From assembly GCA_023391415.1 (NCBI GenBank), contig JAEWAY010000010.1, positions 8,363 through 72,362 on the forward strand: DNA of 64,000 nucleotides. Direction: 5' to 3'. How positions within the stretch are numbered: position 1 is the stretch's first letter; every line of letters begins with the position of its first letter. Under the pieces are notes generated by a model. It did no database searches and was not told the origin of the DNA. It saw only the letters and a program-made list of their open reading frames with translations. Shown in pieces: positions 25,081-38,948 of this stretch. This stretch comes from Bacteroidota bacterium. GTDB lineage: Bacteria; Bacteroidota; Bacteroidia; Cytophagales; Cytophagaceae. The position numbers and the translations under genes are program-made.

Positions 25081-28000
25081 GTTGTGATTTGCTTTCATTC
25101 ATTGAAATACTGAGATTTACTACAACCACCTGCCAAGATTTATCCCCTCTGTAATAGTTGTGATTTGCTTTCATTCATTGAAATACTGAGATTTACTACA
25201 ACTGATTGCAGCTACGACATACACGACATTATGTTGTGATTTGCTTTCATTCATTGAAATACTGAGATTTACTACAACAAGAACTCGACACTCCGGATCC
25301 TTGCCCAAGTTGTGATTTGCTTTCATTCATTGAAATACTGAGATTTACTACAACCTAAAAATTAATCCCCCTGCAAATCACCGGTTGTGATTTGCTTTCA
25401 TTCATTGAAATACTGAGATTTACTACAACGCCAGGCTCGATTTCAATATCAAGACCGGAGTTGTGATTTGCTTTCATTCATTGAAATACTGAGATTTACT
25501 ACAACTATATTAAGTGTACCGCCTAACTGGCCATAGTTGTGATTTGCTTTCATTCATTGAAATACTGAGATTTACTACAACCTTTTTTTATACTTCCGGT
25601 ATTTGCTTAGAGTTGTGATTTGCTTTCATTCATTGAAATACTGAGATTTACTACAACATAGTTAAAGGATATCCGGACAATACATTGTTGTGATTTGCTT
25701 TCATTCATTGAAATACTGAGATTTACTACAACGTAGTATCAAGCATATGATCAATTCGCTCCGTTGTGATTTGCTTTCATTCATTGAAATACTGAGATTT
25801 ACTACAACACTATCCGAGTGACTGAAAGTATCTTCCTAGTTGTGATTTGCTTTCATTCATTGAAATACTGAGATTTACTACAACTTGCATACGGTAAACT
25901 TTGTTGTTATTGTAAGTTGTGATTTGCTTTCATTCATTGAAATACTGAGATTTACTACAACTAAAAACCCTTGATTTTACAAGGGTTTTCGGTTGTGATT
26001 TGCTTTCATTCATTGAAATACTGAGATTTACTACAACAGTTGACGAGCGTATTAAAGTCGCGTTGTCGTTGTGATTTGCTTTCATTCATTGAAATACTGA
26101 GATTTACTACAACCAGATGGAAAACGCCTGTCTACATATCCAAGTTGTGATTTGCTTTCATTCATTGAAATACTGAGATTTACTACAACGCCGTGGCAAT
26201 CGCCCCAACTCCTGTATTGGTTGTGATTTGCTTTCATTCATTGAAATACTGAGATTTACTACAACACAACAGAATCCCCTCTTTATCGGGCAACAGTTGT
26301 GATTTGCTTTCATTCATTGAAATACTGAGATTTACTACAACATAGAAAGTAAAATTATCGTCTTCTTGCTGGTTGTGATTTGCTTTCATTCATTGAAATA
26401 CTGAGATTTACTACAACCGGAGTCAGGTACATGGTTGAGTGTCTTTAGTTGTGATTTGCTTTCATTCATTGAAATACTGAGATTTACTACAACCCAATTT
26501 GGGGTATACCGACTCGGATCTAGGTTGTGATTTGCTTTCATTCATTGAAATACTGAGATTTACTACAACACAGTTACACAATGAACAACTACAGATGTAG
26601 TTGTGATTTGCTTTCATTCATTGAAATACTGAGATTTACTACAACACTGATGATCTATGAATTACTTAGACTACGGTTGTGATTTGCTTTCATTCATTGA
26701 AATACTGAGATTTACTACAACAAATCTTGGAATTCGCGGAGAGTTTAGGCGGTTGTGATTTGCTTTCATTCATTGAAATACTGAGATTTACTACAACTGT
26801 AATCTCCCGCGGAGAAAGTTCCATGAGGTTGTGATTTGCTTTCATTCATTGAAATACTGAGATTTACTACAACAAATCTTGGAATTCGCGGAGAGTTTAG
26901 GAGGTTGTGATTTGCTTTCATTCATTGAAATACTGAGATTTACTACAACTTGCTTCCAGAAAACGCGACCAAGGAGTAGTTGTGATTTGCTTTCATTCAT
27001 TGAAATACTGAGATTTACTACAACAGCATTCTCCGTTTTGGTCGCAGCCTCGCCGTTGTGATTTGCTTTCATTCATTGAAATACTGAGATTTACTACAAC
27101 CTTTCTGCAATACCTCAAGCATTGCTTTAGTTGTGATTTGCTTTCATTCATTGAAATACTGAGATTTACTACAACTCAACCGGGGATTGAAACACCGGGG
27201 CAACAGTTGTGATTTGCTTTCATTCATTGAAATACTGAGATTTACTACAACGGCGAAGTTTGGCGGAGCAATCATAATAGGTTGTGATTTGCTTTCATTC
27301 ATTGAAATACTGAGATTTACTACAACCTGATGAGCTAACTACTCATCGAATTTTAAGTTGTGATTTGCTTTCATTCATTGAAATACTGAGATTTACTACA
27401 ACGAAGAAACTCAGGTGGAGACATGGCCGCCAGTTGTGATTTGCTTTCATTCATTGAAATACTGAGATTTACTACAACGGTAGCGGATTGTTCGCTGATC
27501 CCCGTTAGTTGTGATTTGCTTTCATTCATTGAAATACTGAGATTTACTACAACTTATGAGCATAAGGACGGTGGCAAGTGACAGTTGTGATTTGCTTTCA
27601 TTCATTGAAATACTGAGATTTACTACAACTGGCTGGTTTTTTCCATTATGGATACATTAGTTGTGATTTGCTTTCATTCATTGAAATACTGAGATTTACT
27701 ACAACTCCCTGTAGTATGTCAAGTCTATTAATTGCAGTTGTGATTTGCTTTCATTCATTGAAATACTGAGATTTACTACAACAGTAAAAATGGATTTTAA
27801 AACATTACCAAGGTTGTGATTTGCTTTCATTCATTGAAATACTGAGATTTACTACAACAGTAAATCGCTTTTCAATCAAATCCTTTGTGTTGTGATTTGC
27901 TTTCATTCATTGAAATACTGAGATTTACTACAACTTCTTTCCAAAATCGCCAACGCTCTCGGAAGTTGTGATTTGCTTTCATTCATTGAAATACTGAGAT

Positions 28001-28690
28001 TTACTACAACCCGAGGTTAGCGTTTCTTTTCATTCCGTTAGTTGTGATTTGCTTTCATTCATTGAAATACTGAGATTTACTACAACCATCAGCCGCCCAT
28101 ATCCGGTAATCGGTTGAGTTGTGATTTGCTTTCATTCATTGAAATACTGAGATTTACTACAACAAAAAACTAGCTGAATGGATGCAGGAAGGGTTGTGAT
28201 TTGCTTTCATTCATTGAAATACTGAGATTTACTACAACTGATGAGCTAACTACTCATCGAATTTTAAGTTGTGATTTGCTTTCATTCATTGAAATACTGA
28301 GATTTACTACAACTCCCTGAATATTTACGTTTCTAATTATCTGTTGTGATTTGCTTTCATTCATTGAAATACTGAGATTTACTACAACAGTCGATGCGAG
28401 CAATTCTAGCTTTACTAGTTGTGATTTGCTTTCATTCATTGAAATACTGAGATTTACTACAACTAGCTTTCAATTCGCTTCGCTTCGATCAGGGTTGTGA
28501 TTTGCTTTCATTCATTGAAATACTGAGATTTACTACAACTTTCTATCCCTTGGAGAAAAGGAGTATGAAGTTGTGATTTGCTTTCATTCATTGAAATACT
28601 GAGATTTACTACAACCATATGATTATGTTCAAAGCTAGTTGCTAGTTGTGATTTGCTTTCATTCATTGAAATACTGAGATTTACTACAAC
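25081..28690 (+). CRISPR. CRISPR array 1: 48 identical 46-nt repeats and 47 spacers of 29-31 nt
   Basis: I counted repeat starts one by one from 25081, 25157, 25233 through 28570 and 28645. Repeat is GTTGTGATTTGCTTTCATTCATTGAAATACTGAGATTTACTACAAC. Strand is assigned from anti-repeat complementarity (see the tracrRNA feature). Confidence 0.97.
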
Positions 28691-28807: not shown

Positions 28808-29146
28808 CTAAAATAGCTCCAATTGCTGGGGTGTATCGGGCCGCCGGGCCGATTTGGGACCCCGGAAAAATTCCATCCGACCAAACTGCGCGTCGGTAAT
28901 CTCAAAGATGATCACCTCCCCTTTTTCGGGCAGCAGGCTTTTGACCCGTTTTTTGTGTACTTCGGCATTTTCGCGGCTGTTGCAATGCCGGGAGTAGATG
29001 CTATACTGCACCATAGCAAAGCCATCCTTGAGCAATCCTTTGCGAAAGGTAGCGTAGGCCTTGCGGTCTTTTTTGGTTTCGGTCGGCAAATCAAAATATA
29101 CAAATACCCACATGATGCGATACTGGTTGAAGCGTTCGGTTGACAT
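28808..29146 (-). CDS. cas2: CRISPR-associated endoribonuclease Cas2
   Basis: 112 aa starting from [22 protein letters not shown], a Cas2 ferredoxin-fold N-terminus. The longer 155-aa reading overlaps cas1 and is unlikely. Confidence 0.9.
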
Positions 29147-29159
29147 AAACACACTTTTT

Positions 29160-30059
29160 TCAGAGTTCCGGATAAGGCACTTTACGCTTTGTTCCCTCAA
29201 AGCAGGCCATGAGGCCGGCCGTAGTATGCTGCATTGCCACCATGAGGGGGCGGAGCTTGCCATCGATGGTGACATCTGTCACCGGTAGTTGCAGTAATGT
29301 AGCCTTGTCGGCGGTACGCAGGGTTTCGGGCATATGAGGCAGTTCCGCCAGCCAGCGCAACACCAGCAGATCGGCAATGGGGCGGTACGGCTCCATGATA
29401 TCATCGGCCAGGCAAAAGGAGTTGTACTTGTTGCGATGGTGTATACCCAGAGCCGGCAAAAAACCGCTCATGACCAGACTGCGAGCCGTAATAGCCCGGA
29501 GTATGGCATAGGCATAGTTGAAAAAAGGATTGGGCATAGGCTCATCCTGCCCGCGGGTGACCTCGTAGCCCCGCAGTATCAGATCCCAGTAGCGGGAAGC
29601 CGCCCGACCCTCCATATTTTCGGGATCTCCGCTGTTCACTTTTTCGGCTATTTTGCGTACAGCCGATCCATCATAGCCCAGTGTATCAAGTACAGCGGCC
29701 TGATTGAGAATTTTCTGCTCTATGGTCTGCTTCCAGATCTGTTTTTTGAGTGGTTCGCTGGCTTCCATCTGCGTACGCAGGGCTTCGGTAAAGGTGGAGT
29801 TGCCCTGCATATTCCAGGTGAGGGCTCCAGGCATATGCCTATCGTCGCACCAGATCACGGCAGCGTAGTGTTGAGCCAGTGCAGACACCACACTTTGGGT
29901 AAAAGTGATCTGCCGGTGATCGAGCACCAGCACACCTATATCTTCCAGAGGCACCTGACGGCTCTCCCGATCACTGTCTTTGGGAAACTCTACCAACAGT
30001 TGACCATAGCGAATGCTCAGGTGTGCCGGGTTTTCGAAGTAAAGAGTTCGTTTGATCAT
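29160..30059 (-). CDS. cas1: CRISPR-associated endonuclease Cas1 (type II)
   Basis: About 299 aa starting from [15 protein letters not shown]. Type II Cas1-like features ([37 protein letters not shown]). Confidence 0.95.
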
Positions 30060-30160
30060 AGTACCACACAACAGAAAGCTATGTGGATAAATACAAAAAT
30101 GTGGTACTTTGGTTTAAAAAAAGAGAATTTGACAACGCTCATTATCAGAACAACAAATGA

Positions 30161-30202
30161 TAAAAAAAGCCTGATTCGGTACCATGTATACCCAATCAGG
30201 CT
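30161..30202 (-). terminator. intrinsic terminator between cas9 and cas1
   Basis: On the minus strand, AGCCTGATT-(17 nt)-AATCAGGCT is followed by T7, 42 nt after the cas9 stop. Confidence 0.55.
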
Positions 30203-30243
30203 TTTACAAAAGATCCTGTAAAAGTGTCAGAATCTTTAGATAT

Positions 30244-33200
30244 TTATATGTCAACAGTCTCTTCTGTCTTATCCACCATATTGCTTCTCAATACATTTAC
30301 AGGTCGTACATTGCCAAGCCGGTCGATATGTACTTTGATGCAACAGGCTTTGATCATCCGCTCTTCATCAAAGCCTTTGTCACTATTACCCCACGGCCGC
30401 TCAGACTTGTTATTCGAACCAAGCTCTTTGGTATCTATGATCGGTCGCGCTATATGAGCCGGAGCAAAGAAACACTGTCCTTTGTTGGAGCTTTTCATAA
30501 TATACAGACGCTCCACTATCTTCTTTTTGTCTGTCCAGTCAATTTGTGCCACATCTTCATCAGCGGTCGGCACATAAACAGTATCGCCCGGCGACAGTAT
30601 GATGTATCCGGCATCCGGATTTTGATCATGAACAGGCAATTTTTTGGCAAGGCGTGGTATCACCTCCAAAAATGGCGGAGTTGAGTATTTTCTTACCACT
30701 TGAAGCTCTCCAGTTTTTTTATTCTCTTCCTGAACGATTTCTATGACAAAATACTGATTAACTCCCTTGTCTCCATCAAGTAGCTTATTATCCAATTCGA
30801 TTTTGTCACCGCCTTCTTTGCGCGAAATTTTATTGATCGGAAATGGCGACAATCTAAGCAACTGTTCGAGCCCTTCCCCTTTAAACGCCTTTTTGGGATC
30901 ATTATCATAATTTGCCAGATGTTCACGCAATAGCTTTGGAAGCCAGTTATTGGCATGATGCGCATTGGGTAGATTTTCTATTTTGTCAATTGTAAATGAA
31001 TCGTCTATAGCAACCCGCTTGGATGCGTACTTCCTGAATTGCATCATATCTAGTTTATCCAGTACCTGTCCTGTACCTTCATCAAACACCGGATTGGATC
31101 GCAAATAGGTCAAAACCGCTTTCAAATCATGATTGTACCTGACAATAATGCTGCTGATTGTTCTGCGCAAGCTGGTTTTGGCAATACGCCAGTCTTCCGA
31201 CTTCCAGATATTTCCGGATTGAATAAACTCCGATTGTGTCTTGACCGCTTTGCTCAGATCGACATTCTTTTTGTATTCCGGCAGGTATATTCTGCCCAAT
31301 GGCTGCCCAAACAGCGATTGCCGCACAGCCACCCAATATTTGTCATCGGATACAGGAGCGGATTGCAATTCAAGTACCTTTTTCCATTGTCCCTCCACTT
31401 GTTTCCAGCGCCAGTATCGGTTCGTTGTCGGACTCACCAATCGGGACGATGGCTTGTAAGACACCGCTACCCGCTCCAGATGCTCTCTGACATTTTTAAA
31501 AAATATTCCGTCATTCTCAGTACCCCAGGGTGGAGCAAACTCTGTCATACCAATTGTCTCTCCCCGTAGTTCTTTCTCTTTTTTGAGCAAGTATTTCCAT
31601 TTTTTCCAATAAGTATACCGCTCATTGTCGGCCGGATCATTGCTAAAAGAACTAAGTGAGTTGAGATATTGGATATGCCTGCGGGTGGTACAGGCTACTA
31701 TGAGACCATCAAGGGCCTGATGCCTGTGATCAATACGCTTGTAATCTTTCGCAAAATGAATATCCTTCCGCTTATCTGGATTATCTATGATCAGTTGTTC
31801 GCCCGTAAGACGTTGCAGACGCTCAAAACGAGGCCGGACCAGCTCTTTCCATAACTTATGCAAGCCCCATTTATACTTAAGATCAGAAGTTATGGCACCA
31901 TTAGTATATACAATACCATCATTCGTTTCATTCCCTTTGGCTACCGGACGCAGAAACTGCGCTATTGTGCGGGCCAGGTAGCGGGTATCGTTTAGCTGGC
32001 GCTCTACAAAGTCTTCCGGTATTTCACTAAGTTTAAGATATCTGCGTTTCTTTTTGGAAAAGATGGCATCTACATTTTTCAGGTACGTCTCCATATCCAA
32101 TACTTTTGCCTCACCATCACGCCCCTGCATATCTTCAATAAACTGTATGGCGGTGCGATTGCCTTTGATTGCGTTGACTTTGGCCTCTACAATTACCTTA
32201 TTTCCAATTGAGTCATCATAAAAGCGACTCCGGGGCAATATATGATCAATCTGGTATTTTTCTGTAAAAAGATCACTAAGCTTGATCGGTTTGCCAGTAT
32301 AAGGCGAACGATAGCCCTGCTCTGCCCAAAGCTTGTATTTTTCAATGTCCGCATTGCTTACAAACTCCGCTTTATTGGTTTTGAATATCGATTCAAACTG
32401 CTCTTCCGCCTGGCGACCTCCATTTTCTTTCCATAGACGGAACCGATCCTGATCTGCCGGAGAATCCGGGTTGGCCTGCGGGCACCGAAGCTCTCTCAGT
32501 AAGGCTTCGATACGCGCTCTTTCAAGCCGGTTTTTCATATTATAGGTGAAGTCATCCTTCCGCTGCTTATTGTTTTTGCGAAGCTCACGCCCCAGCTCCA
32601 CGTGTATATAGTCTGGCCGACCCAAAGCGGGATCCTGCCATATATCCCTGACCAGATTGAGAGCTTCGCGTACCAGTTTTTCTACAACGGGATTGCGCAT
32701 GGAGTTGTATGGGACCAGCTCCCGGATACGCAGATCGGCCACGCTATCGTATTTATGCTCATTGGCAGGCTCGCTGTGTCGTCCGTAAGCTACATAACAG
32801 GCTGTGGTGACAGATAAGCCTTGAAAATCGGTGAGCGAATAAAGATTTTCTTTCTGCACATGCCTACGCGCCACATCAGAAATTGATGTCCCGTCTTCAC
32901 CATCAATAAACAACTCAATCCGGCTTCTAAGATCTATAGCTGGTTGCAGACTATAGCCTTTTTGTCCTTTGGCTTTGGGATACAGACCTTCTTCGCACCA
33001 GTACCTGCCGGTACGCATGAGGGGCAAAAGGTTGTTGAGCGCTCTTACAGAGTATGCGGCATACTCGCTTTTAAAAGCCGGCAGACTCGCCAGATGCTTT
33101 ATCAGAGGCTGAGGAAAATCAAAATACTTTGTGTTGGATAAAGCGGATTCTATATCTTTCTTTTCGGGCAGAGAATATAGGACATGCCAAAGCTGATGCA

Positions 33201-34869
33201 GCCTGTGCGGGTCGGCAAGTAGTGCTTCGCCCTGCTGTTGAAAGCTGTGTTTTCGAAACACTTTGCGAAAGAGCGCTTTGGTCTGATTGCCCGGAAAGGA
33301 TGTATCTTCCGGATAATTGAGCCGGACAGGATATGTTTTGCCGTCGGCCTCCAACCTGTTCTTTTTAAAACCCAGATGCTGCAATATAGCATCGCAGGTT
33401 ACCTCCGCGCTCTGGTCAAAAAGTTCGAACAAGCGCTCTTTGGCCTCGGTAGTAAGATGCTCACCAGAATCATTGGAGCTGTTTTGTTGCCTTCTACCAA
33501 CCTGTTTTTCTTTGTCGTGAATACGTAAGTTGTGAATGGTCTGCCAAATTCTGAACTCCTGAAACAAGGGATGACTTTTGGGCGCTACTTTTATTCCGGC
33601 TGAACATTGTACACCATCCTTGTCCAGATAGGTTCTGGATTCGTAGCGGCAATTGGCAAGCAAACCCTTCTGAGACTTGAGACCTCGCTGATAGTATATA
33701 ATATCGTTGCGAAAAATATGGTATAGATCTCTTGATCTGATCTCTTTATTTTTTTGCCGGTTGTGTACATAAAATGCGTCTGCTATGGCATCGATGTTGG
33801 TACGATCAGCAAATATGTCTTTATAGTACCGCTCCTGACATTGCCAGATCGCGTCCATTTCTTTCTGATAAAAAGACCGGTCTACGATACGCTCTCTGAT
33901 ACGATAGTTGCGGTCTTGCCGCAACTGCTGCAAATAATATTCCGACAGGTGCAGCGAGGTACGGTTTACGTCTTTTTCAAGTGCTTCTTTGCGATTTTGC
34001 CAGTCGGCCGGATCTACTTCGGCTACTGTGTAGCTGACTTCTCCTGATTTGGTTGTCTTGCGGGAGATGGTCAGCTCCAGATCCTTGCCCTTCCAGTCCG
34101 GAGCCTGCCGTCTTCTCTGTATTACTTCAAAAGACAGCTCTCCTGCTCTACAGTGCAGCTTGAAAAAGTTTTGATCTTTGTTTTTTCCCTGTGCAGGGCC
34201 CAGATCTTCAATATCCTGTATATGGACGATCTCGATCCATTTTTCGGTTATAGGGTACTTCACTGAGTCGGATTCCTGGTCGCTCTCTGCCTGGATCTGG
34301 TCCTTGCGACTGCTCCTGAAGCCCCGACGCTGATTGTAATGATAAAGTACACGGGCAAGTTCAGTCAGGCTGATTTGCTCTCTAAGAGCTTTGGCCTTGA
34401 GATAATAGATTATCCAGTCTTCGGGTATTTCGTATTGCTCTCCCTGTGCGTTGAGCTGACCGGTAATTTCAAAATAATCGGCCACCTCCCGCCTCAAATC
34501 ATCGGAATAAGGCAGGTAGGATTTGATAGTATGATTGGGATTTTTCTTAAAATCTTCAGGAAATTCCGGCGACAGCCAACCCAATATCTTAAAGGCTCTG
34601 ATAAGACGTGTACGACGTAGCTTGTAGCGGTGATTGAGACGGCGGGCGCCACGGGCCAGACGGCGGGCTGCGGCTTTTGACTCGGGTGTGCCCGACTCAA
34701 ACTTGCTGAGCGCATCGCCCTCCATAGGAATAATACGGCTGCCCAGGCGCAGTATGCGACCTTGCAGCTTCGCAGGCTCGTTATCATCATAGATATTGCT
34801 CTCTATCATGGCCCAACCAATAGAATTGGTACCGAGGTCCAAGCCAAGTATTCTTTTCATATCGGACAT
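30244..34869 (-). CDS. cas9: Cas9 (type II-C-like, 1541 aa)
   Basis: RuvC-I GLDLGTNSIGWA, an Arg-rich bridge helix AAARRLARGARRLNHRYKLRRTR, HNH DHILPRSRFYDDSIGNKVIVEAKVNAIKGNRTA, RuvC-III DHRHQALDGLIV. cas1 and cas2 follow. Confidence 0.95.
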   Translation of the reverse strand: MSDMKRILGLDLGTNSIGWAMIESNIYDDNEPAKLQGRILRLGSRIIPMEGDALSKFESGTPESKAAARRLARGARRLNHRYKLRRTRLIRAFKILGWLSPEFPEDFKKNPNHTIKSYLPYSDDLRREVADYFEITGQLNAQGEQYEIPEDWIIYYLKAKALREQISLTELARVLYHYNQRRGFRSSRKDQIQAESDQESDSVKYPITEKWIEIVHIQDIEDLGPAQGKNKDQNFFKLHCRAGELSFEVIQRRRQAPDWKGKDLELTISRKTTKSGEVSYTVAEVDPADWQNRKEALEKDVNRTSLHLSEYYLQQLRQDRNYRIRERIVDRSFYQKEMDAIWQCQERYYKDIFADRTNIDAIADAFYVHNRQKNKEIRSRDLYHIFRNDIIYYQRGLKSQKGLLANCRYESRTYLDKDGVQCSAGIKVAPKSHPLFQEFRIWQTIHNLRIHDKEKQVGRRQQNSSNDSGEHLTTEAKERLFELFDQSAEVTCDAILQHLGFKKNRLEADGKTYPVRLNYPEDTSFPGNQTKALFRKVFRKHSFQQQGEALLADPHRLHQLWHVLYSLPEKKDIESALSNTKYFDFPQPLIKHLASLPAFKSEYAAYSVRALNNLLPLMRTGRYWCEEGLYPKAKGQKGYSLQPAIDLRSRIELFIDGEDGTSISDVARRHVQKENLYSLTDFQGLSVTTACYVAYGRHSEPANEHKYDSVADLRIRELVPYNSMRNPVVEKLVREALNLVRDIWQDPALGRPDYIHVELGRELRKNNKQRKDDFTYNMKNRLERARIEALLRELRCPQANPDSPADQDRFRLWKENGGRQAEEQFESIFKTNKAEFVSNADIEKYKLWAEQGYRSPYTGKPIKLSDLFTEKYQIDHILPRSRFYDDSIGNKVIVEAKVNAIKGNRTAIQFIEDMQGRDGEAKVLDMETYLKNVDAIFSKKKRRYLKLSEIPEDFVERQLNDTRYLARTIAQFLRPVAKGNETNDGIVYTNGAITSDLKYKWGLHKLWKELVRPRFERLQRLTGEQLIIDNPDKRKDIHFAKDYKRIDHRHQALDGLIVACTTRRHIQYLNSLSSFSNDPADNERYTYWKKWKYLLKKEKELRGETIGMTEFAPPWGTENDGIFFKNVREHLERVAVSYKPSSRLVSPTTNRYWRWKQVEGQWKKVLELQSAPVSDDKYWVAVRQSLFGQPLGRIYLPEYKKNVDLSKAVKTQSEFIQSGNIWKSEDWRIAKTSLRRTISSIIVRYNHDLKAVLTYLRSNPVFDEGTGQVLDKLDMMQFRKYASKRVAIDDSFTIDKIENLPNAHHANNWLPKLLREHLANYDNDPKKAFKGEGLEQLLRLSPFPINKISRKEGGDKIELDNKLLDGDKGVNQYFVIEIVQEENKKTGELQVVRKYSTPPFLEVIPRLAKKLPVHDQNPDAGYIILSPGDTVYVPTADEDVAQIDWTDKKKIVERLYIMKSSNKGQCFFAPAHIARPIIDTKELGSNNKSERPWGNSDKGFDEERMIKACCIKVHIDRLGNVRPVNVLRSNMVDKTEETVDI

Positions 34870-34910: not shown

Positions 34911-34933
34911 GATAAATTAAAGCAAATCACAAC
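34911..34933. other. orphan repeat/anti-repeat element in the cas9 upstream region
   Basis: Plus strand 34919-34933 reads AAAGCAAATCACAAC, the exact reverse complement of repeat positions 1-15. On the cas9 strand this reads GTTGTGATTTGCTTT, 50-64 nt upstream of the cas9 ATG. Confidence 0.5.
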
Positions 34934-35493
34934 ACAAGTCTTTTCCAACATTCTTCCAAGTTGTTATAGATTTGTTATTGGCTTCTCACCAGGCGCCAGT
35001 ATTCTCAGCTGATCATCCGTATATCCAAAAATGCAAAGGTCGATAATCCCTATTATAGAACAAAATCAGGACAGTGAAACTTACTCAACAGTATCAACGT
35101 CACCTTCTATATCTGCCATTCTTTATTATTTCTATTAGTTGATCATATGATCTATTTCGATTAGATCCAGTCTTCCCCAAAGACACATTCAGCCGAATCG
35201 ATATAGTGCCTTTTTTCACTAACTTTATCAATATAAAAATAAACAAAAGATTTGTAGAAATATTAAAAATAGAAGGATCAAATAAATGTAGTTGCTGCAT
35301 CCACTTGTGTTTTTAATGAGAACACAATTTTATCAAAAGATTTGTAGAAATACAAATTTTAAACATTGCCAACCTTAGATTCTCCCTTATCCTCCAATTC
35401 TCATTTGTTTATCTCTTTGAGCCTGCAACGACAAAGTTCATATATGAAATAACATCCTTACCTTATATTGATAGCACACGAAAAAATATAGAC

Positions 35494-35618
35494 AAAAAAA
35501 CGCCCCGATAAAATCGAGGCGGCCCCGATGATGTCGAGACACATATCGAATCACTACGGAATGATCCTTATTGTGATTTGCTGATTGAAAGGTAGTGTAT
35601 TTTATACATTTATACAAC
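35494..35618 (-). ncRNA. candidate tracrRNA
   Basis: Parts of the minus-strand RNA in order:
- Anti-repeat ...CCUUUCAAUCAGCAAAUCACAAU.
- AAGG plus a small GGA-UCAU-UCC nexus-like hairpin.
- A 9-bp hairpin GUGAUUCGA...UCGA(C)AUCAU.
- A terminator hairpin CGCCUCGAU-UUU-AUCGGGGCG followed by U7.
The anti-repeat pairs with repeat nt 1-13 and with the AUUGAAA segment of array 1. Confidence 0.6.
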
Positions 35619-35633
35619 CCCTAGGTCTGATTT

Positions 35634-35951
35634 TTAGCTTTTTGTCTGAGACATACTACTGACCTTGTATTGCAACAGCTCGTTGTACAGCTCTAGTGTC
35701 ATGGTCTTGAGGTTTTCAAAAAATACGGGCAGCGGCACCTCCACCAAGCGCTCTATGGTCTGGTGATAGCGCTGGTAAAGCTCATCGCTGCGCTGCTCGC
35801 GCCCAAAACCCATCAGCTCCAGCACCTGCCGGTCGAGATCGGTATAAAAATCGTCGGCTGTAAATCCGGCCTTTTCCAGACCGTACAAAAGTTTTGAATT
35901 TTTGAGGTCCGCTCGTAAAAGTGAGAGAATTAATTCCTTTGGATATTCCAT
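35634..35951 (-). CDS. hypothetical small helical acidic protein (105 aa)
   Basis: Clean ORF ending 15 nt upstream of the tracrRNA candidate. No recognisable family. Confidence 0.5.
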   Translation of the reverse strand: MEYPKELILSLLRADLKNSKLLYGLEKAGFTADDFYTDLDRQVLELMGFGREQRSDELYQRYHQTIERLVEVPLPVFFENLKTMTLELYNELLQYKVSSMSQTKS

Positions 35952-36261
35952 AATCTTTGGATTAAAAGTTTAACTATCCAAAGATAAACGATACAAAAAA
36001 CACTGTTTTTCAAGGTTTTTTTAACCAAAACGATATATAATTTAGCTAATCCGATATTTAAATTAACTGATTCTATATTTTTTAGCTCAGATAAAAAATA
36101 ATGACTTTTTTTCCACAACCCCTTCTCTTTTTGCTAACTTCATTCTGCTAATTAGTGAGATTTACTACAACTTACAACTTCCTCCCCAGAGTTCCTTGCA
36201 GTTGTGATTTGCTTTCATACAGCTTCCTACATGTTGCTTTTGAAAAAACTGGAAACAATTT

Positions 36262-36285
36262 ATATGTACAGATTGTTGTACATAT
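36262..36285 (+). promoter_or_regulatory. putative YefM-YoeB operator (paired TGTACA hexamers)
   Basis: ATATGTACA-gattgt-TGTACATAT. The TGTACA cores are at 36265-36270 and 36277-36282, 12 bp centre to centre and about 50 nt upstream of yefM. E. coli yefM-yoeB operators use TGTACA-core palindromes. Confidence 0.55.
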
Positions 36286-36331
36286 GATGATAATTAATTA
36301 AATTGAATCAGTTAATTGATCCCAGAATATT

Positions 36332-36586
36332 ATGGAAGTAACAACATACACCAATTTAAGACAGCATCTGAAGGCATATCTGGACAAGGTAGTAAAACAA
36401 CATACGCCTCTGTTTGTGACAAGATCAGGCAGTGAGGAAGTAGTAATACTCTCCAAATCTGATTTTGAAAGTATGCAAGAGACCTTCTACCTCCTGCAAT
36501 CGCCGGCAAACGCGGTCAGGCTGCACCGGGCTTTGCAAGAATACAAAGAGGGTAAAGGCACTAAAAGGAATCTGATAGAAGAGTAA
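36332..36586 (+). CDS. yefM: type II antitoxin, Phd/YefM family
   Basis: 84 aa. MEVTTYTNLRQHLKAYLDKV...PLFVTRSG...VVILS...ETFYLL is the classic YefM pattern. Confidence 0.9.
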   Translation: MEVTTYTNLRQHLKAYLDKVVKQHTPLFVTRSGSEEVVILSKSDFESMQETFYLLQSPANAVRLHRALQEYKEGKGTKRNLIEE

Positions 36587-36588
36587 AT

Positions 36589-36843
36589 ATGGACATTGTT
36601 TTTTCGTCCGACGCATGGGACGATTATTTATATTGGCAGGAACATGACAAAAAAATGTTGAAAAAAATCAACGCTCTGATTAAGGAAATAGAAAGAACCC
36701 CCTTTGAAGGATCTGGCAAACCAGAGCCGTTAAAACACGCTCTGGCCGGGTGCTGGTCGAGAAGAATTAATCTTGAGCATCGACTCGTGTATCAGTTTGA
36801 TGACAGTGCTGTTTTTATTCTGCAATGCAGATACCATTATTAG
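36589..36843 (+). CDS. yoeB: type II toxin, YoeB/Txe family mRNA interferase
   Basis: 84 aa. AWDDYLYWQEHDKKMLKKINALIKEIERTPFEGSGKPEPLKHALAGCWSRRINLEHRLVY...RYHY is near-canonical YoeB. It starts 2 nt after the yefM stop. Confidence 0.9.
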   Translation: MDIVFSSDAWDDYLYWQEHDKKMLKKINALIKEIERTPFEGSGKPEPLKHALAGCWSRRINLEHRLVYQFDDSAVFILQCRYHY

Positions 36844-37903
36844 ATTGATTTACTACAACAATAGCTCTCGAAGAGTTAGAGAGTTTTTGTTGTGATTTGC
36901 TTTCATTCTGCTAATTAGTGAGATTTACTACAACAGGGTTCCGCATTCTGAAACATATAGTTCGTTGTGATTTGCTTTCATTCTGCCAATTAGTGAGATT
37001 TACTACAACTTTAAATAAAGTTTAACTAACTTTATGTTGTTGTGATTTGCTTTCATTCTGTCAATTAGTGAGATTTACTACAACTAAAATAAAGATCAGT
37101 AGGGTTCTGAACAGGTTGTGATTTGCTTTCATTCTGCCAATTAGTGAGATTTACTACAACTCAAATCCTTCACATAGGGTTAATTATGTTGTGATTTGCT
37201 TTCATTCTGCCAATTAGTGAGATTTACTACAACGGAATCGATTCAACCGACTGGTTATTGTATGTTGTGATTTGCTTTCATTCTGCCAATTAGTGAGATT
37301 TACTACAACCAATTTACTGGGAAGCCCATCATTTCCCCGTTGTGATTTGCTTTCATTCTGCCAATTAGTGAGATTTACTACAACAGATGTCCGATTAATA
37401 TTACTTTATTAACGTTGTGATTTGCTTTCATTCTGCCAATTAGTGAGATTTACTACAACGATTTCTTAAAACGTTGAATCGCTCGTAAGTTGTGATTTGC
37501 TTTCATTCTGCCAATTAGTGAGATTTACTACAACGATTGATGATAAGGCGGTCACTATGCCTTCGTTGTGATTTGCTTTCATTCTGCCAATTAGTGAGAT
37601 TTACTACAACACTATACTTCATTTTCCTTGAATTTTATTGTTGTGATTTGCTTTCATTCTGCCAATTAGTGAGATTTACTACAACTCGCCAATAATTTGG
37701 TACACCTTTTTCCCGGTTGTGATTTGCTTTCATTCTGCCAATTAGTGAGATTTACTACAACCTAGGTCTCTCTAGTTGGCTTCTTTACAAGGGTTTATTG
37801 CCAATATCAAGATCAGAAAACGGAGGCAAAACACCACCCATGTCAAAAAAGTAAGCCGGTTTTTGAAATCCTGTGACTCTATAAATACAGCGGTGGTGGT
37901 GTA

Positions 37904-38467
37904 TTATTTGCCCCTTTTGCTGAGGTATGAAAAGAGACTTCTCCACCAAGGGAGCTGGGGAGAGATCGTGTTGGACTGATTTCGCTCCAATATCTTTCTG
38001 AGTTCCATAGCATCTACCATATCCTTCAATGTTTCATCGTGACGCCTGGCCTGGCTCTTGATCTCAATCAGATCTTCCAAACCTATTACCGGCACATGGC
38101 TGTTATGTAACTGCTGCATGGAAGCTCTGCCAAAACAGGCTTCAAAAGTCAAAGGCTCATAGTAGATCGTGGTCATTAGATCTACCTTAAATTCTTCATT
38201 TTCTTCAAACAATCGGATAGGTGTAGGATGGTCTGGTGGCCTTTCGTTAATAACCTGAAAAATGGCTTCATCTGTATAGCCAAGCTGCTTCAGGGCTTTT
38301 CCCAGTCGCGCCATATTGGGTGTGGTAGCATCGAGCCATAAATCCATATCGCCGGTATATCTCGAATATCCATAAAAACCAACGGCCAGACCACCCACCA
38401 ATAAAAACCGAACCTGATTTTGGTTCAACGCATCCAGTACTTCTTTATAAAAATCATCGATCACCAT
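37904..38467 (-). CDS. nucleotidyltransferase-fold protein (Pol-beta/MNT superfamily)
   Basis: FLLVGGLAVGFYGYSRYTGDMDLWLD matches the hGGxA...G..R.T.DhD NTase signature. The start at MVIDDFYKE (38467) gives an ATGGTGA overlap with the upstream small ORF. An alternative start is at 38539. Confidence 0.65.
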   Translation of the reverse strand: MVIDDFYKEVLDALNQNQVRFLLVGGLAVGFYGYSRYTGDMDLWLDATTPNMARLGKALKQLGYTDEAIFQVINERPPDHPTPIRLFEENEEFKVDLMTTIYYEPLTFEACFGRASMQQLHNSHVPVIGLEDLIEIKSQARRHDETLKDMVDAMELRKILERNQSNTISPQLPWWRSLFSYLSKRGK

Positions 38468-38634
38468 TCGATCTTTCTTTTGCAAACAACGGTAGATTTG
38501 GGTTTGCCCATTTTGAATAATCGCATAAGGTAATTCCATTTTTTCTCAAACGGCCATTGAGCAAACCGCAACCGAAACTCCATTTCCTGTTCGCTGGCAT
38601 TGGCCTGATCCGGATTCCAGTCTATTTTTTTCAT
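38461..38634 (-). CDS. small ORF (57 aa) translationally coupled to the nucleotidyltransferase gene
   Basis: Hand translation gives MKKIDWNPDQANASEQEMEFRLRFAQWPFEKKWNYLMRLFKMGKPKSTVVCKRKIEW. Its stop overlaps the NTase ATG. No family recognised. Confidence 0.3.
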   Translation of the reverse strand: MKKIDWNPDQANASEQEMEFRLRFAQWPFEKKWNYLMRLFKMGKPKSTVVCKRKIEW

Positions 38635-38718: not shown

Positions 38719-38735
38719 GTTGCGATTCGCTTTCA
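38719..38735 (+). repeat. orphan degenerate CRISPR repeat 5-prime fragment
   Basis: GTTGCGATTCGCTTTCA matches repeat nt 1-17 at 15 of 17 positions. It lies about 960 bp beyond the last intact repeat of array 2. Confidence 0.45.
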
Positions 38736-38948
38736 CACCGCGAGAATATAGTATTTTCCATAAAAATCGGCAACGGATAGCGGAGTGATCTTTTCTCTAT
38801 ACAAGCGCTTTCACAGCAGTCATTTTGTATGATGTTTTTGATTTCCCGCGTCGATTACGCGCTAAATCCATTATCTGAAGAAACGGAGCCGCTGTCAATA
38901 TGCTACGCGTATAGCAAAATTTATTAGTTTCGCGGAAAAGATTGGGTT

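Follow-up and report, generated by a model that had tools for sequence, protein, structure and literature searches.

A yefM-yoeB toxin–antitoxin operon inside a repeat of a type II-C CRISPR array, probably a relocated and tolerated passenger

Several described systems bring toxin–antitoxin (TA) pairs and CRISPR arrays together. The TA locus eca3686-7 of Pectobacterium atrosepticum lies between CRISPR2 and CRISPR3, and elsewhere in the genus a RelE/ParE pair is located between CRISPR-1 and CRISPR-2 (PMC3513311, PMC6963963). In the CCTA units, described in 2026, the elements of hicA-CRISPR-hicB-cas13a are functionally coupled (PMC13448076), while in CreTA an RNA toxin is repressed by a guide resembling CRISPR RNA (crRNA) together with the Cas effector, which makes Cas indispensable (PMC10097628). 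Type I TA modules adjoin the arrays of Clostridioides difficile (PMC5961336), and vapBC pairs in the cas cassettes of Sulfolobales were proposed to aid maintenance (PMC4390879). Here we describe a yefM-yoeB operon, a type II (protein) TA system, which is located inside a repeat of a type II-C CRISPR array. The locus belongs to a 64,000-nucleotide (nt) stretch of contig JAEWAY010000010.1 (positions 8,363 to 72,362; Bacteroidota assembly GCA_023391415.1), which is referred to below as the window, and its features are listed in Table 1.

Chromosomal integrons also harbor TA cassettes; these addiction modules are surrounded by short repeats that recombine readily, and they may limit large deletions. 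The window cassette would resemble them in being portable via its flanking repeats, while it differs in having neither attC nor an integrase, and the recombination proposed here would be homology-based, at repeats of 18-46 nt. The similarity to Pectobacterium is that a protein TA separates stretches of one repeat family, with repeats of this family on both sides; the order "array - TA - array" is also found in L007, L087 and L092, three of the related contigs described below. The differences are that the Pectobacterium systems are of type I-F or I-E, while the window system is of type II-C and halves of one repeat flank the TA; the available parts of the two accounts mention neither a within-repeat junction nor relocation (PMC3513311, PMC6963963). 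As in the CCTA units, a type II protein TA is interleaved with repeats, and in L007 a repeat fragment lies between a HigB-like toxin gene and an XRE antitoxin gene. On the other hand, in CCTA the array sits between hicA and hicB, with crRNA damping HicA and Cas13a binding to HicB, while the window operon is undivided and has no link to Cas9. CreTA is likewise a toxin–antitoxin element inside a CRISPR-cas locus, but the antitoxin of the window is a protein, and guide complementarity, when tested, was absent. The C. difficile modules share the recurrent co-location of TA and arrays, but they are antisense-RNA type I systems, which lie beside type I-B arrays. Compared to E. coli YefM-YoeB (2a6q; PMC1802561), the window operon likewise has an 84-amino-acid (aa) toxin, an upstream Phd/YefM antitoxin at a distance of 2 nt and paired TGTACA boxes with a 6-bp spacer, while it differs in lying between CRISPR repeat fragments. 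An earlier note on this DNA had held that no such case was described. This goes too far, because TA loci between arrays are known from Pectobacterium and hicA-CRISPR-hicB; our search of the literature found no prior description of a TA in a Cas9 array or of a TA positioned inside a repeat. What is new is the Cas9 (type II-C) context, the within-repeat position with both halves kept, and the comparative evidence that the cassette is moved by crossovers between repeat fragments.

The comparison of the cassette ends with the array repeats showed that the cassette is preceded by an exact copy of repeat nt 1-18 (R1-18) and followed by an exact copy of nt 34-46. Both halves are in exact array register, and each is flanked by an ordinary 29-nt spacer, S1 upstream and S2 downstream, as the earlier note had observed. 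The R1-18 sequence, GTTGTGATTTGCTTTCAT, was matched 64 times in the window with at most three mismatches, compared to 0.06 expected; all but five of these matches were exact copies in the arrays or in the split repeat, and the five others are chance matches or relics. The insert spans 36219-36846, which is 628 bp replacing 15 nt of the repeat (nt 19-33), and not 620 bp replacing 7 nt, as had been proposed. The right half had been read as nt 26-46 with 18 of 21 matches. Its nt 34-46 are indeed exact, but the ATTAG ahead of this remnant is made of bases of the final Tyr codon and the yoeB stop; the C-terminus, ...RYHY-stop, is as in E. coli YoeB, and in relatives the ...TATTAG of yoeB runs straight into nt 1 of a full repeat. 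Because the match to E. coli and the junctions of relatives show that the yoeB end is native, only nt 34-46 are repeat-derived, and the suggestion that the yoeB TAG lies in repeat-derived sequence did not hold. Identical junctions are present in the independent assemblies L002, L004 and L005, which excludes misassembly, and we regard the presence of a real and intact yefM-yoeB TA inside an array repeat as practically certain. A search of Rfam returned a sub-threshold match of CRISPR-DR49 to the split repeat as its sole match. Two further candidates in the vicinity were considered and rejected. The similarity of S2 to the leader start, which could have marked it as a leader relic, was equalled or exceeded by 45 of 205 ordinary spacers, and the 28 nt after R1-18 were unconvincing as a decayed copy of repeat nt 19-46.

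Both genes of the operon were identified by family matches. YefM scored 77.8 bits against PF02604 (cut-off 29.8) and 46.3 against TIGR01552 (cut-off 20.8), while it was below the cut-off of the E. coli-specific equivalog NF008499 (77.6 versus 121). YoeB scored 128.8 bits against the TIGR02116 equivalog (cut-off 51.8) and aligned across all 84 residues with E. coli YoeB (PDB 2a6q; E 2.6e-36). The yefM stop (36586) is separated by 2 nt from the yoeB ATG (36589). Residues E46, R65, H83 and Y84, which we take from E. coli structure work to be catalytic (E. coli numbering), are identical to those of E. coli YoeB and are kept in 7/7 variants. The operators of yefM-yoeB consist of paired 5'-TGTACA-3' boxes, 12 bp apart from centre to centre and at most 80 bp from the yefM start (PMC1802561). 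The TGTACA-N6-TGTACA of the window, which the earlier note had correctly placed in the insert together with yefM and yoeB, has this geometry: its boxes (36265-36270 and 36277-36282; 36265-36282 in total) lie 49 nt 5' of the yefM ATG within an extended palindrome at 36262-36285, and the core is invariant in five variants. The pN/pS ratio (nonsynonymous to synonymous polymorphism) was 0.05-0.23 across seven sequence variants, and both genes were intact in all of them. These comparisons indicate that the operon is intact and under selection, and it is probably functional and would be autoregulated. The open reading frames (ORFs) of the insert that are backed by both domain matches and gene calls are yefM and yoeB only, with shorter overlapping antisense ORFs being outside the scope of this ORF-content test. 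A promoter scan gave sigma-70-like counts at the level of shuffled sequences, although the sigma-70 model is unsuited to Bacteroidetes, while the terminator scan found two terminator-like sites (0.5 expected), both within yoeB and none after it. An imperfect hairpin with 18-nt arms that are 83% complementary (36855-36893) is located just 3' of yoeB and extends from the last bases of the repeat remnant through S2 into the following repeat; it could slow read-through, but it is not a canonical terminator.

To place the locus among its relatives, three sets of sequences were used. Among the species representatives of GTDB, a scan with Cas9 detected a single relative, L006, a metagenome-assembled genome of Bacteroidetes with 95% identical Cas9; a YoeB scan of metagenome contigs yielded 80 loci; and a wider series of contigs was obtained via exact-protein look-ups of cluster members. 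An array was found beside YoeB in one of the 80 loci, which was also the closest (L007; 94% aa identity), while the other 79 YoeB relatives, at most 77% identical, had no CRISPR-like array in the flanks fetched (up to 5 kb on each side). In this sampling the association of TA and array appears confined to one species complex of uncultured Bacteroidetes.

The tracrRNA-side region of these contigs, where tracrRNA stands for trans-activating CRISPR RNA, was read in the orientation of the window, and four architectures with one variant were distinguished. In state A (L006 and L089) the partial repeat is followed by an uninterrupted array of at least 20 repeats, leader-like sequence and exbD/exbB, and there is no TA; this is array 2 in the same frame as in the window, and it provides the uninterrupted counterpart for which the earlier note had suggested looking. 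In state B (L007, L091 and L093) a Gp49/HigB-like toxin and XRE antitoxin pair splits the second repeat; then come 14 repeats, leader-like sequence and a DUF2204/AbiEii-like pair, and after these R1-18, yefM-yoeB, a full repeat, a spacer, a repeat, a second leader-like sequence and exbD/exbB. State C (L087) is similar to B, although the Gp49 insert and exbBD are missing, and has a 12-repeat array after yoeB. In state C2 (L092/L101 and L094-L097) yoeB is followed by one full repeat, leader-like sequence, a gene for a 207-aa protein and a third repeat relic; the junctions of the short contigs L098-L099 are as in this state. In state D, which includes the window, L002, L004 with L105, L005 and L106, it is yefM-yoeB that interrupts the second repeat, and the array is followed by the DUF2204 pair. 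The left junction, R1-18 followed by ACAGCTTCC, is identical across states B, C, C2 and D, while the right junctions vary. In L007, L087 and L091-L101, at least 10 contigs, this identical left junction is at a different site from that of the window; in these contigs the DUF2204 pair precedes the cassette and a full repeat comes directly after it, which in most relatives opens a short array. In most relatives the DUF2204 pair is divergent to yefM-yoeB across the R1-18 fragment. Spacer S2 is common to the window, L004 and L005, while S1 differs in L004 and L005, and the arrays of the window, L006 and L007 have no shared spacers.

The insert of L007 (1588-2557; also in L091 and L093) is antisense to the array and consists of a Gp49/HigB-like gene (PF05973) and an XRE gene. 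These genes interrupt the second repeat of array 2, which is broken at nt 25 and at about nt 31 (R1-25 ... about R31-46). The toxin gene and the antitoxin gene are 47 nt apart, and an additional R1-19 fragment lies between them. By its gene content this pair represents another, independent TA, in the repeat whose ordinal position is that of the yefM-yoeB repeat in the window. At the other site of the yefM-yoeB cassette, the yoeB stop abuts nt 1 of the full repeat or shares a G with it (L007 5247-5256; L087, minus strand, about 4884; L092 5504-5512). Read-through and tracrRNA processing there would give a crRNA-like RNA with the yoeB 3' end as its "spacer", an unusual crRNA of the "extraneous" kind.

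A recombinant repeat scar, which bears on the origin of the window arrangement, lies after the DUF2204 pair. The alignments showed that the left flank of the scar matches the DUF2204 side of the R1-18 next to the cassette in L092, while for the scar relic and the right flank the match is to the third repeat relic of L092. The two flanks are 1.77 kb apart in that contig, with yefM-yoeB, one repeat, leader-like sequence and the 207-aa gene between them, so that relatives carry yefM-yoeB at the scar site of the window. The same hybrid scar is present in L105, from the same sample as L004, which retains 70 nt that are lost from the window. Thus, two changes separate state D from state C2: two 18-nt repeat fragments have crossed over at one site, and the cassette is present inside a repeat elsewhere. 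The identical left junction at the other site, together with the scar, argues for relocation by repeat–repeat recombination rather than a single clean insertion, and on these comparisons we think it rather likely that the cassette reached its place in this way and not as a fresh insertion. Recombination between repeat fragments, by excision or duplication followed by re-entry at another repeat, would have moved the cassette to the trailer end of array 2, and the former site would have collapsed to the hybrid scar. Had the cassette first been duplicated, loss of the old copy without poisoning of the cell would be understandable as well. The favoured direction of this change, as judged from the available architectures, is from C to D, because two of the three clades of the TA tree carry the DUF2204-adjacent arrangement, because the genomes bearing exbBD link state A to state B, and because the GCT variant typical of the post-yoeB array of L087 is also that of the first full repeat following S2. 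The order A, B, C, D is consistent with the distribution of ExbBD among the genomes.

The position of the cassette in the array is informative about how it is tolerated. L087 and L088 share the spacer beside the partial repeat of array 1, and L087 has eight extra spacers on the cas2 side, which indicates that spacers enter at the 3', leader-like end and that the partial repeat is the old end. For type II-C arrays a mutated first ("extra") repeat has been described, and a crRNA made from it would be useless (PMC12080349). The window matches the type II-C rule of this study, with acquisition at the last repeat and a partial first repeat without nt 1-7: in the terminal repeat nt 8-13 are recognisable upstream past a 3-nt insertion, while nt 1-7, which are the tracrRNA-pairing end, are gone. 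The TA thus occupies the second-oldest repeat, at the trailer (old) end of array 2. Within this repeat the break is in the middle portion (nt 19-33), which is variable, with arrays 1 and 2 differing only inside nt 21-33. S1 keeps the whole 13-nt core that pairs with tracrRNA, S2 keeps the repeat 3' end, and splitting the repeat leaves the predicted pairing between its nt 1-13 and the anti-repeat unchanged. We infer that the S1 and S2 crRNAs are both still made. Repeats of type II-C are reported to carry their own promoters (Neisseria and Campylobacter literature), and by analogy with these systems the repeat 3' end next to S2 would carry such a per-repeat promoter. Tolerance of the insert could then be explained by the break in the variable middle, the handle kept by S1, the 3' end kept by S2 and the low importance of spacers at the old end.

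Taken together, these observations suggest that yefM-yoeB persists mainly as a selfish, tolerated passenger, to which we assign a probability of roughly 0.6. A self-repressing type II TA would ride in the tracrRNA-side array of a type II-C system, and it would persist because YoeB outlives YefM, so that cells deleting their only copy would be poisoned. Any protection of the CRISPR locus would be a by-product, limited to deletions that span the cassette.

Several points weigh against this account. Toxicity, neutralisation and post-segregational killing are predicted properties of the operon. The direction of the relocation is not provable, as integration at an 18-nt repeat mirrors excision from it and the architectures come without a rooting outgroup. 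The right junction is TAG-ATT-nt 34-46, while simple homologous re-entry predicts a full repeat, and hence one has to postulate a further deletion of 33 nt, together with a change of 3 nt; similarly, additional spacer losses are needed to explain why S1 differs while S2 is shared between the window and L004/L005. The repeat 3' end showed no recognisable -33/-7 motif of the Bacteroidetes type, and the promoter placed there is borrowed from Neisseria and Campylobacter. Finally, every genome compared is a metagenome assembly.

An alternative to relocation is primary insertion of the cassette into this very repeat, by illegitimate or microhomology recombination or by a mobile element, in which case the DUF2204-adjacent copies would be derived. 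The earlier note had described the cassette as an insert in this repeat; its position inside the repeat was borne out, while relocation fits the other-site junction and the scar better than a clean single insertion. It is in favor of primary insertion that the halves are complementary parts of a single repeat in perfect register, and that the Gp49/HigB-like and XRE pair of L007 also splits a second repeat, which hints at a mid-repeat hot spot. However, the cassette ends, when searched for mobile-element signatures, showed no terminal inverted repeats and no target-site duplication, and there is no transposase at the cassette. Close relatives were also missing from plasmids, phages and viral contigs: plasmid and phage sequences gave only distant matches to yoeB coding sequence, at 67-71% identity, and the cassette junction was absent from the viral contigs of IMG/VR. 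Moreover, the arrangement seen in two of the three TA clades and in the ExbBD-bearing genomes is the other one, and the scar at 38719 is most simply read as loss from that site. We consider primary insertion unlikely.

Also improbable is a joint reading, in which repeat-bounded TA operons are recombination-portable cargo of type II-C loci, similar to an integron with the repeats as its crossover sites, and are at the same time wired to the array. If this were true, the TA would anchor the locus and modulate immunity, as in the Cas13a-HicAB CCTA units; read-through from the yefM promoter, which stress would derepress, could drive crRNA, and the full repeat that abuts yoeB could yield a crRNA with the yoeB 3' end as guide.

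The TA could also be a dedicated safeguard, selected because loss of the array or of cas9 becomes lethal, as CreTA is for type I systems; both the analogy with CreTA and the stabilisation of the locus had been proposed in the earlier note. The TA is intact, conserved and always beside array sequences in at least 15 contigs, and maintenance roles were proposed for TA pairs in CRISPR-cas loci (PMC4390879). On the other hand, YefM is a protein antitoxin independent of Cas9 and crRNA, and no guide matched the TA promoter or operon above chance. For the 60 window spacers compared with the yefM promoter (36219-36335) the longest exact match was 9 nt, which is equal to the median of shuffled sequences. 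A CreA-like guide was also sought by comparing S1, S2 and S1 of L004 with the whole cassette, and this candidate was rejected, as nothing was above chance or conserved. In this comparison the first 13 nt of S1 (36172-36184) were antisense to yefM coding sequence (36434-36446) at 12/13 positions, with an uncorrected shuffle p of about 0.04; this match is at the end distal to the protospacer-adjacent motif, is absent in L004/L005, and is probably due to chance. The comparison of relatives also argues against stabilisation, because Cas9 and tracrRNA beside the TA were swapped for alleles only 25-32% identical, spacer content was fully turned over, the TA itself has moved, TA-less relatives retain an intact CRISPR-Cas locus, and the 79 more distant YoeB relatives had no array in their flanks. 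Neither the analogy nor the stabilisation was upheld, and we find a dedicated safeguard improbable.

In a further alternative, the TA would be functionally wired to the array, in that stress degrading YefM would boost crRNA output by read-through, in a CCTA-like integrated TA-CRISPR unit. The orientation of yefM-yoeB is co-directional with crRNA in all arrangements, repeat sequence always comes immediately after yoeB, and there is no terminator-like site after yoeB. Hence, read-through from the yefM promoter into the array may occur, as the earlier note had envisaged, and the functional hicA-CRISPR-hicB-cas13a units provide a precedent (PMC13448076). However, the reported promoters of type II-C repeats make read-through unnecessary, the DUF2204 and Gp49/XRE pairs, which are likewise embedded, run antisense to the array, and the association is restricted to one species complex. 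These points make wiring as the explanation for the presence of the TA quite improbable. It is very improbable that Cas1-Cas2 captured the fragment of about 0.6 kb as an oversized spacer. Cas1-Cas2 measures prespacers of about 30 bp, which the fragment greatly exceeds. In L007, L087 and L092 the end of the cassette meets nt 1 of a full repeat exactly or with an overlap of one base, next to leader-like sequence; this is the place of a spacer, but on the left side there are only 18 nt of repeat, and the next 28 nt match nt 19-46 at 11/28 positions, which is not above chance. Although all data are from metagenome assemblies and arrays are difficult to assemble, the chance that the assembly joined unrelated contigs at a repeat is negligible, as the junctions are unique beyond 18 nt on the left and 13 nt on the right and recur in four independent assemblies with two different upstream spacers.

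The relatives revealed another exchange, which perhaps is more interesting than the TA itself. At least four Cas9 alleles (1541/1543, 1549, 1446 and 1383 aa) occupy the same slot, and the three that were compared are only 25-32% identical; the Cas9 of the window is 31.7% identical to that of L004 and about 29% identical to that of L087. The flanks of the swapped Cas9 are conserved, with Cas1 97-99% and a 105-aa protein 89-97% identical, and the repeat family is the same throughout. The tracrRNA gene also differs, as it is on the + strand beside cas9 in L004 and on the minus strand in the window. From these alignments, it looks like the cas9-tracrRNA module was replaced as alleles within one species complex.

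The locus is a natural example of a classical protein TA in a Cas9 array for which an empty state, three to four filled architectures and a scar are available. The series indicates that CRISPR repeats may serve as crossover sites that move cargo genes, beyond spacers, which is relevant to the splitting of arrays, to the origin of "orphan" repeat fragments and to the build-up of TA genes around CRISPR loci. The species complex, with at least four Cas9 alleles in one frame, with and without the TA, is also a test bed for the idea that addiction modules stabilise defence loci. The data so far speak against a strong stabilisation of the locus by the TA.

Table 1. Features of the CRISPR-Cas locus and of the yefM-yoeB cassette (window coordinates), with the cas9 alleles of relatives (contig coordinates)
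Feature	Position	Strand	Remarks
Array 1	25081-28690	+ (crRNA sense)	48 repeats of 46 nt, GTTGTGATTTGCTTTCATTCATTGAAATACTGAGATTTACTACAAC; beyond cas2 (downstream)
cas2-cas1-cas9 operon	28808-34869	-	ORF list and Pfam
cas2	about 28808-29146	-	Pfam match
cas1	29160-30071	-	Pfam match
cas9	30244-34869	-	1541 aa; Pfam RuvC_III, HNH; Cas9_a
Putative tracrRNA	about 35495-35618	-	anti-repeat, then AAGG, hairpins, terminator (GGGGCCGCC...GGGGCGTTTTTTT)
105-aa ORF	35634-35951	-	conserved; between tracrRNA gene and array 2
Array 2, whole	36139-37761	+ (crRNA sense)	cas9/tracrRNA side of operon
Terminal partial ("extra") repeat, array 2	36139-36171	+	nt 14-46 intact
Spacer S1	36172-36200	+	29 nt; after partial repeat ending 36171
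Repeat nt 1-18	36201-36218	+	exact copy, GTTGTGATTTGCTTTCAT
Cassette 5' region	36219-36331	+	holds paired TGTACA operator
yefM antitoxin	36332-36586	+	84 aa; PF02604 E 5e-22
yoeB toxin	36589-36843	+	84 aa; PF06769 E 1.5e-40; native TAG stop
ATT	36844-36846	+	3 bases between yoeB stop and repeat remnant; origin unclear
Repeat nt 34-46	36847-36859	+	exact copy, GATTTACTACAAC
Spacer S2	36860-36888	+	29 nt; next intact repeat begins 36889
Array 2, intact part	36889-37761	+	12 intact 46-nt repeats, 11 spacers; GTTGTGATTTGCTTTCATTCTGCCAATTAGTGAGATTTACTACAAC; first repeat is GCT variant
Leader-like sequence	37762-37880	+	spacer-acquisition end of array 2
DUF2204/AbiEii-like nucleotidyltransferase	37904-38467	-	AbiEii similarity weak (E about 1e-3)
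57-aa ORF overlapping DUF2204 gene	38461-38634	-	pair spans 37904-38634
Recombinant repeat scar	38719-38742	+	GTTGCGATTCGCTTTCAC(ACCGCG); GTTGCGATTCGCTTTCAC is 38719-38736; after DUF2204 pair
cas9 allele, L004	335-4984		
cas9 allele, L087	8777-13117		
cas9 allele, L104	1735-5886		1383 aa

The CRISPR-Cas locus of the window is of type II-C, with cas9-cas1-cas2 and a tracrRNA with an anti-repeat; this assignment follows from the fact that neither csn2 nor cas4 was found at the cas operon. The two arrays directly flank the operon on either side, with crRNA sense on the + strand in both, and are composed of 46-nt repeats and spacers of 27-30 nt (mostly 29-30). The repeats of the two arrays differ only in nt 21-33 (TCATTGAAATACT in array 1 versus TCTGCCAATTAGT in array 2), and in L006 the array-2 repeat type is present in both arrays. 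The core of the tracrRNA anti-repeat, at 35570-35582, is the complement of repeat nt 1-13 according to both the sequence and duplex prediction, and a single tracrRNA apparently serves both repeat types through these nucleotides. The 105-aa ORF marks the trailer side of array 2 in all relatives and had no family match in Pfam, NCBIfam or PADLOC; a 66-aa ORF between cas9 and the tracrRNA gene (35100-35300, minus strand) is likewise without family assignment. At the other end, leader-like sequence is kept after the final repeat in every array 2 examined among the relatives. In the window the DUF2204 gene and the 57-aa ORF lie between this end and the repeat relic, and, given the weak AbiEii similarity, they form a putative second TA-like or abortive-infection module.

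A second anti-repeat-like sequence, ATTAAAGCAAATCACAAC (34916-34933, + strand), has one mismatch to the complement of repeat nt 1-18. It adjoins the cas9 start, which is the position of tracrRNA in L004, no obvious terminator comes after it, and it may be left over from a tracrRNA that has been replaced. The tracrRNA gene itself, when its DNA is read on the + strand (35570-35628), resembles a decayed repeat followed by a leader-like start (...TTTATACAAC, then CC, then CTAGGTCTG); at the end of array 2 (37751-37770) the corresponding sequence is ...TTTACTACAAC followed by CTAGGTCTC. This resemblance suggests that the tracrRNA gene was derived from an array end. Finally, array 1 contains two pairs of duplicated spacers (26722-26751/26874-26903 and 27327-27356/28239-28267), the members of one pair differing at a single base, and this duplication fits internal recombination or repeated acquisition.

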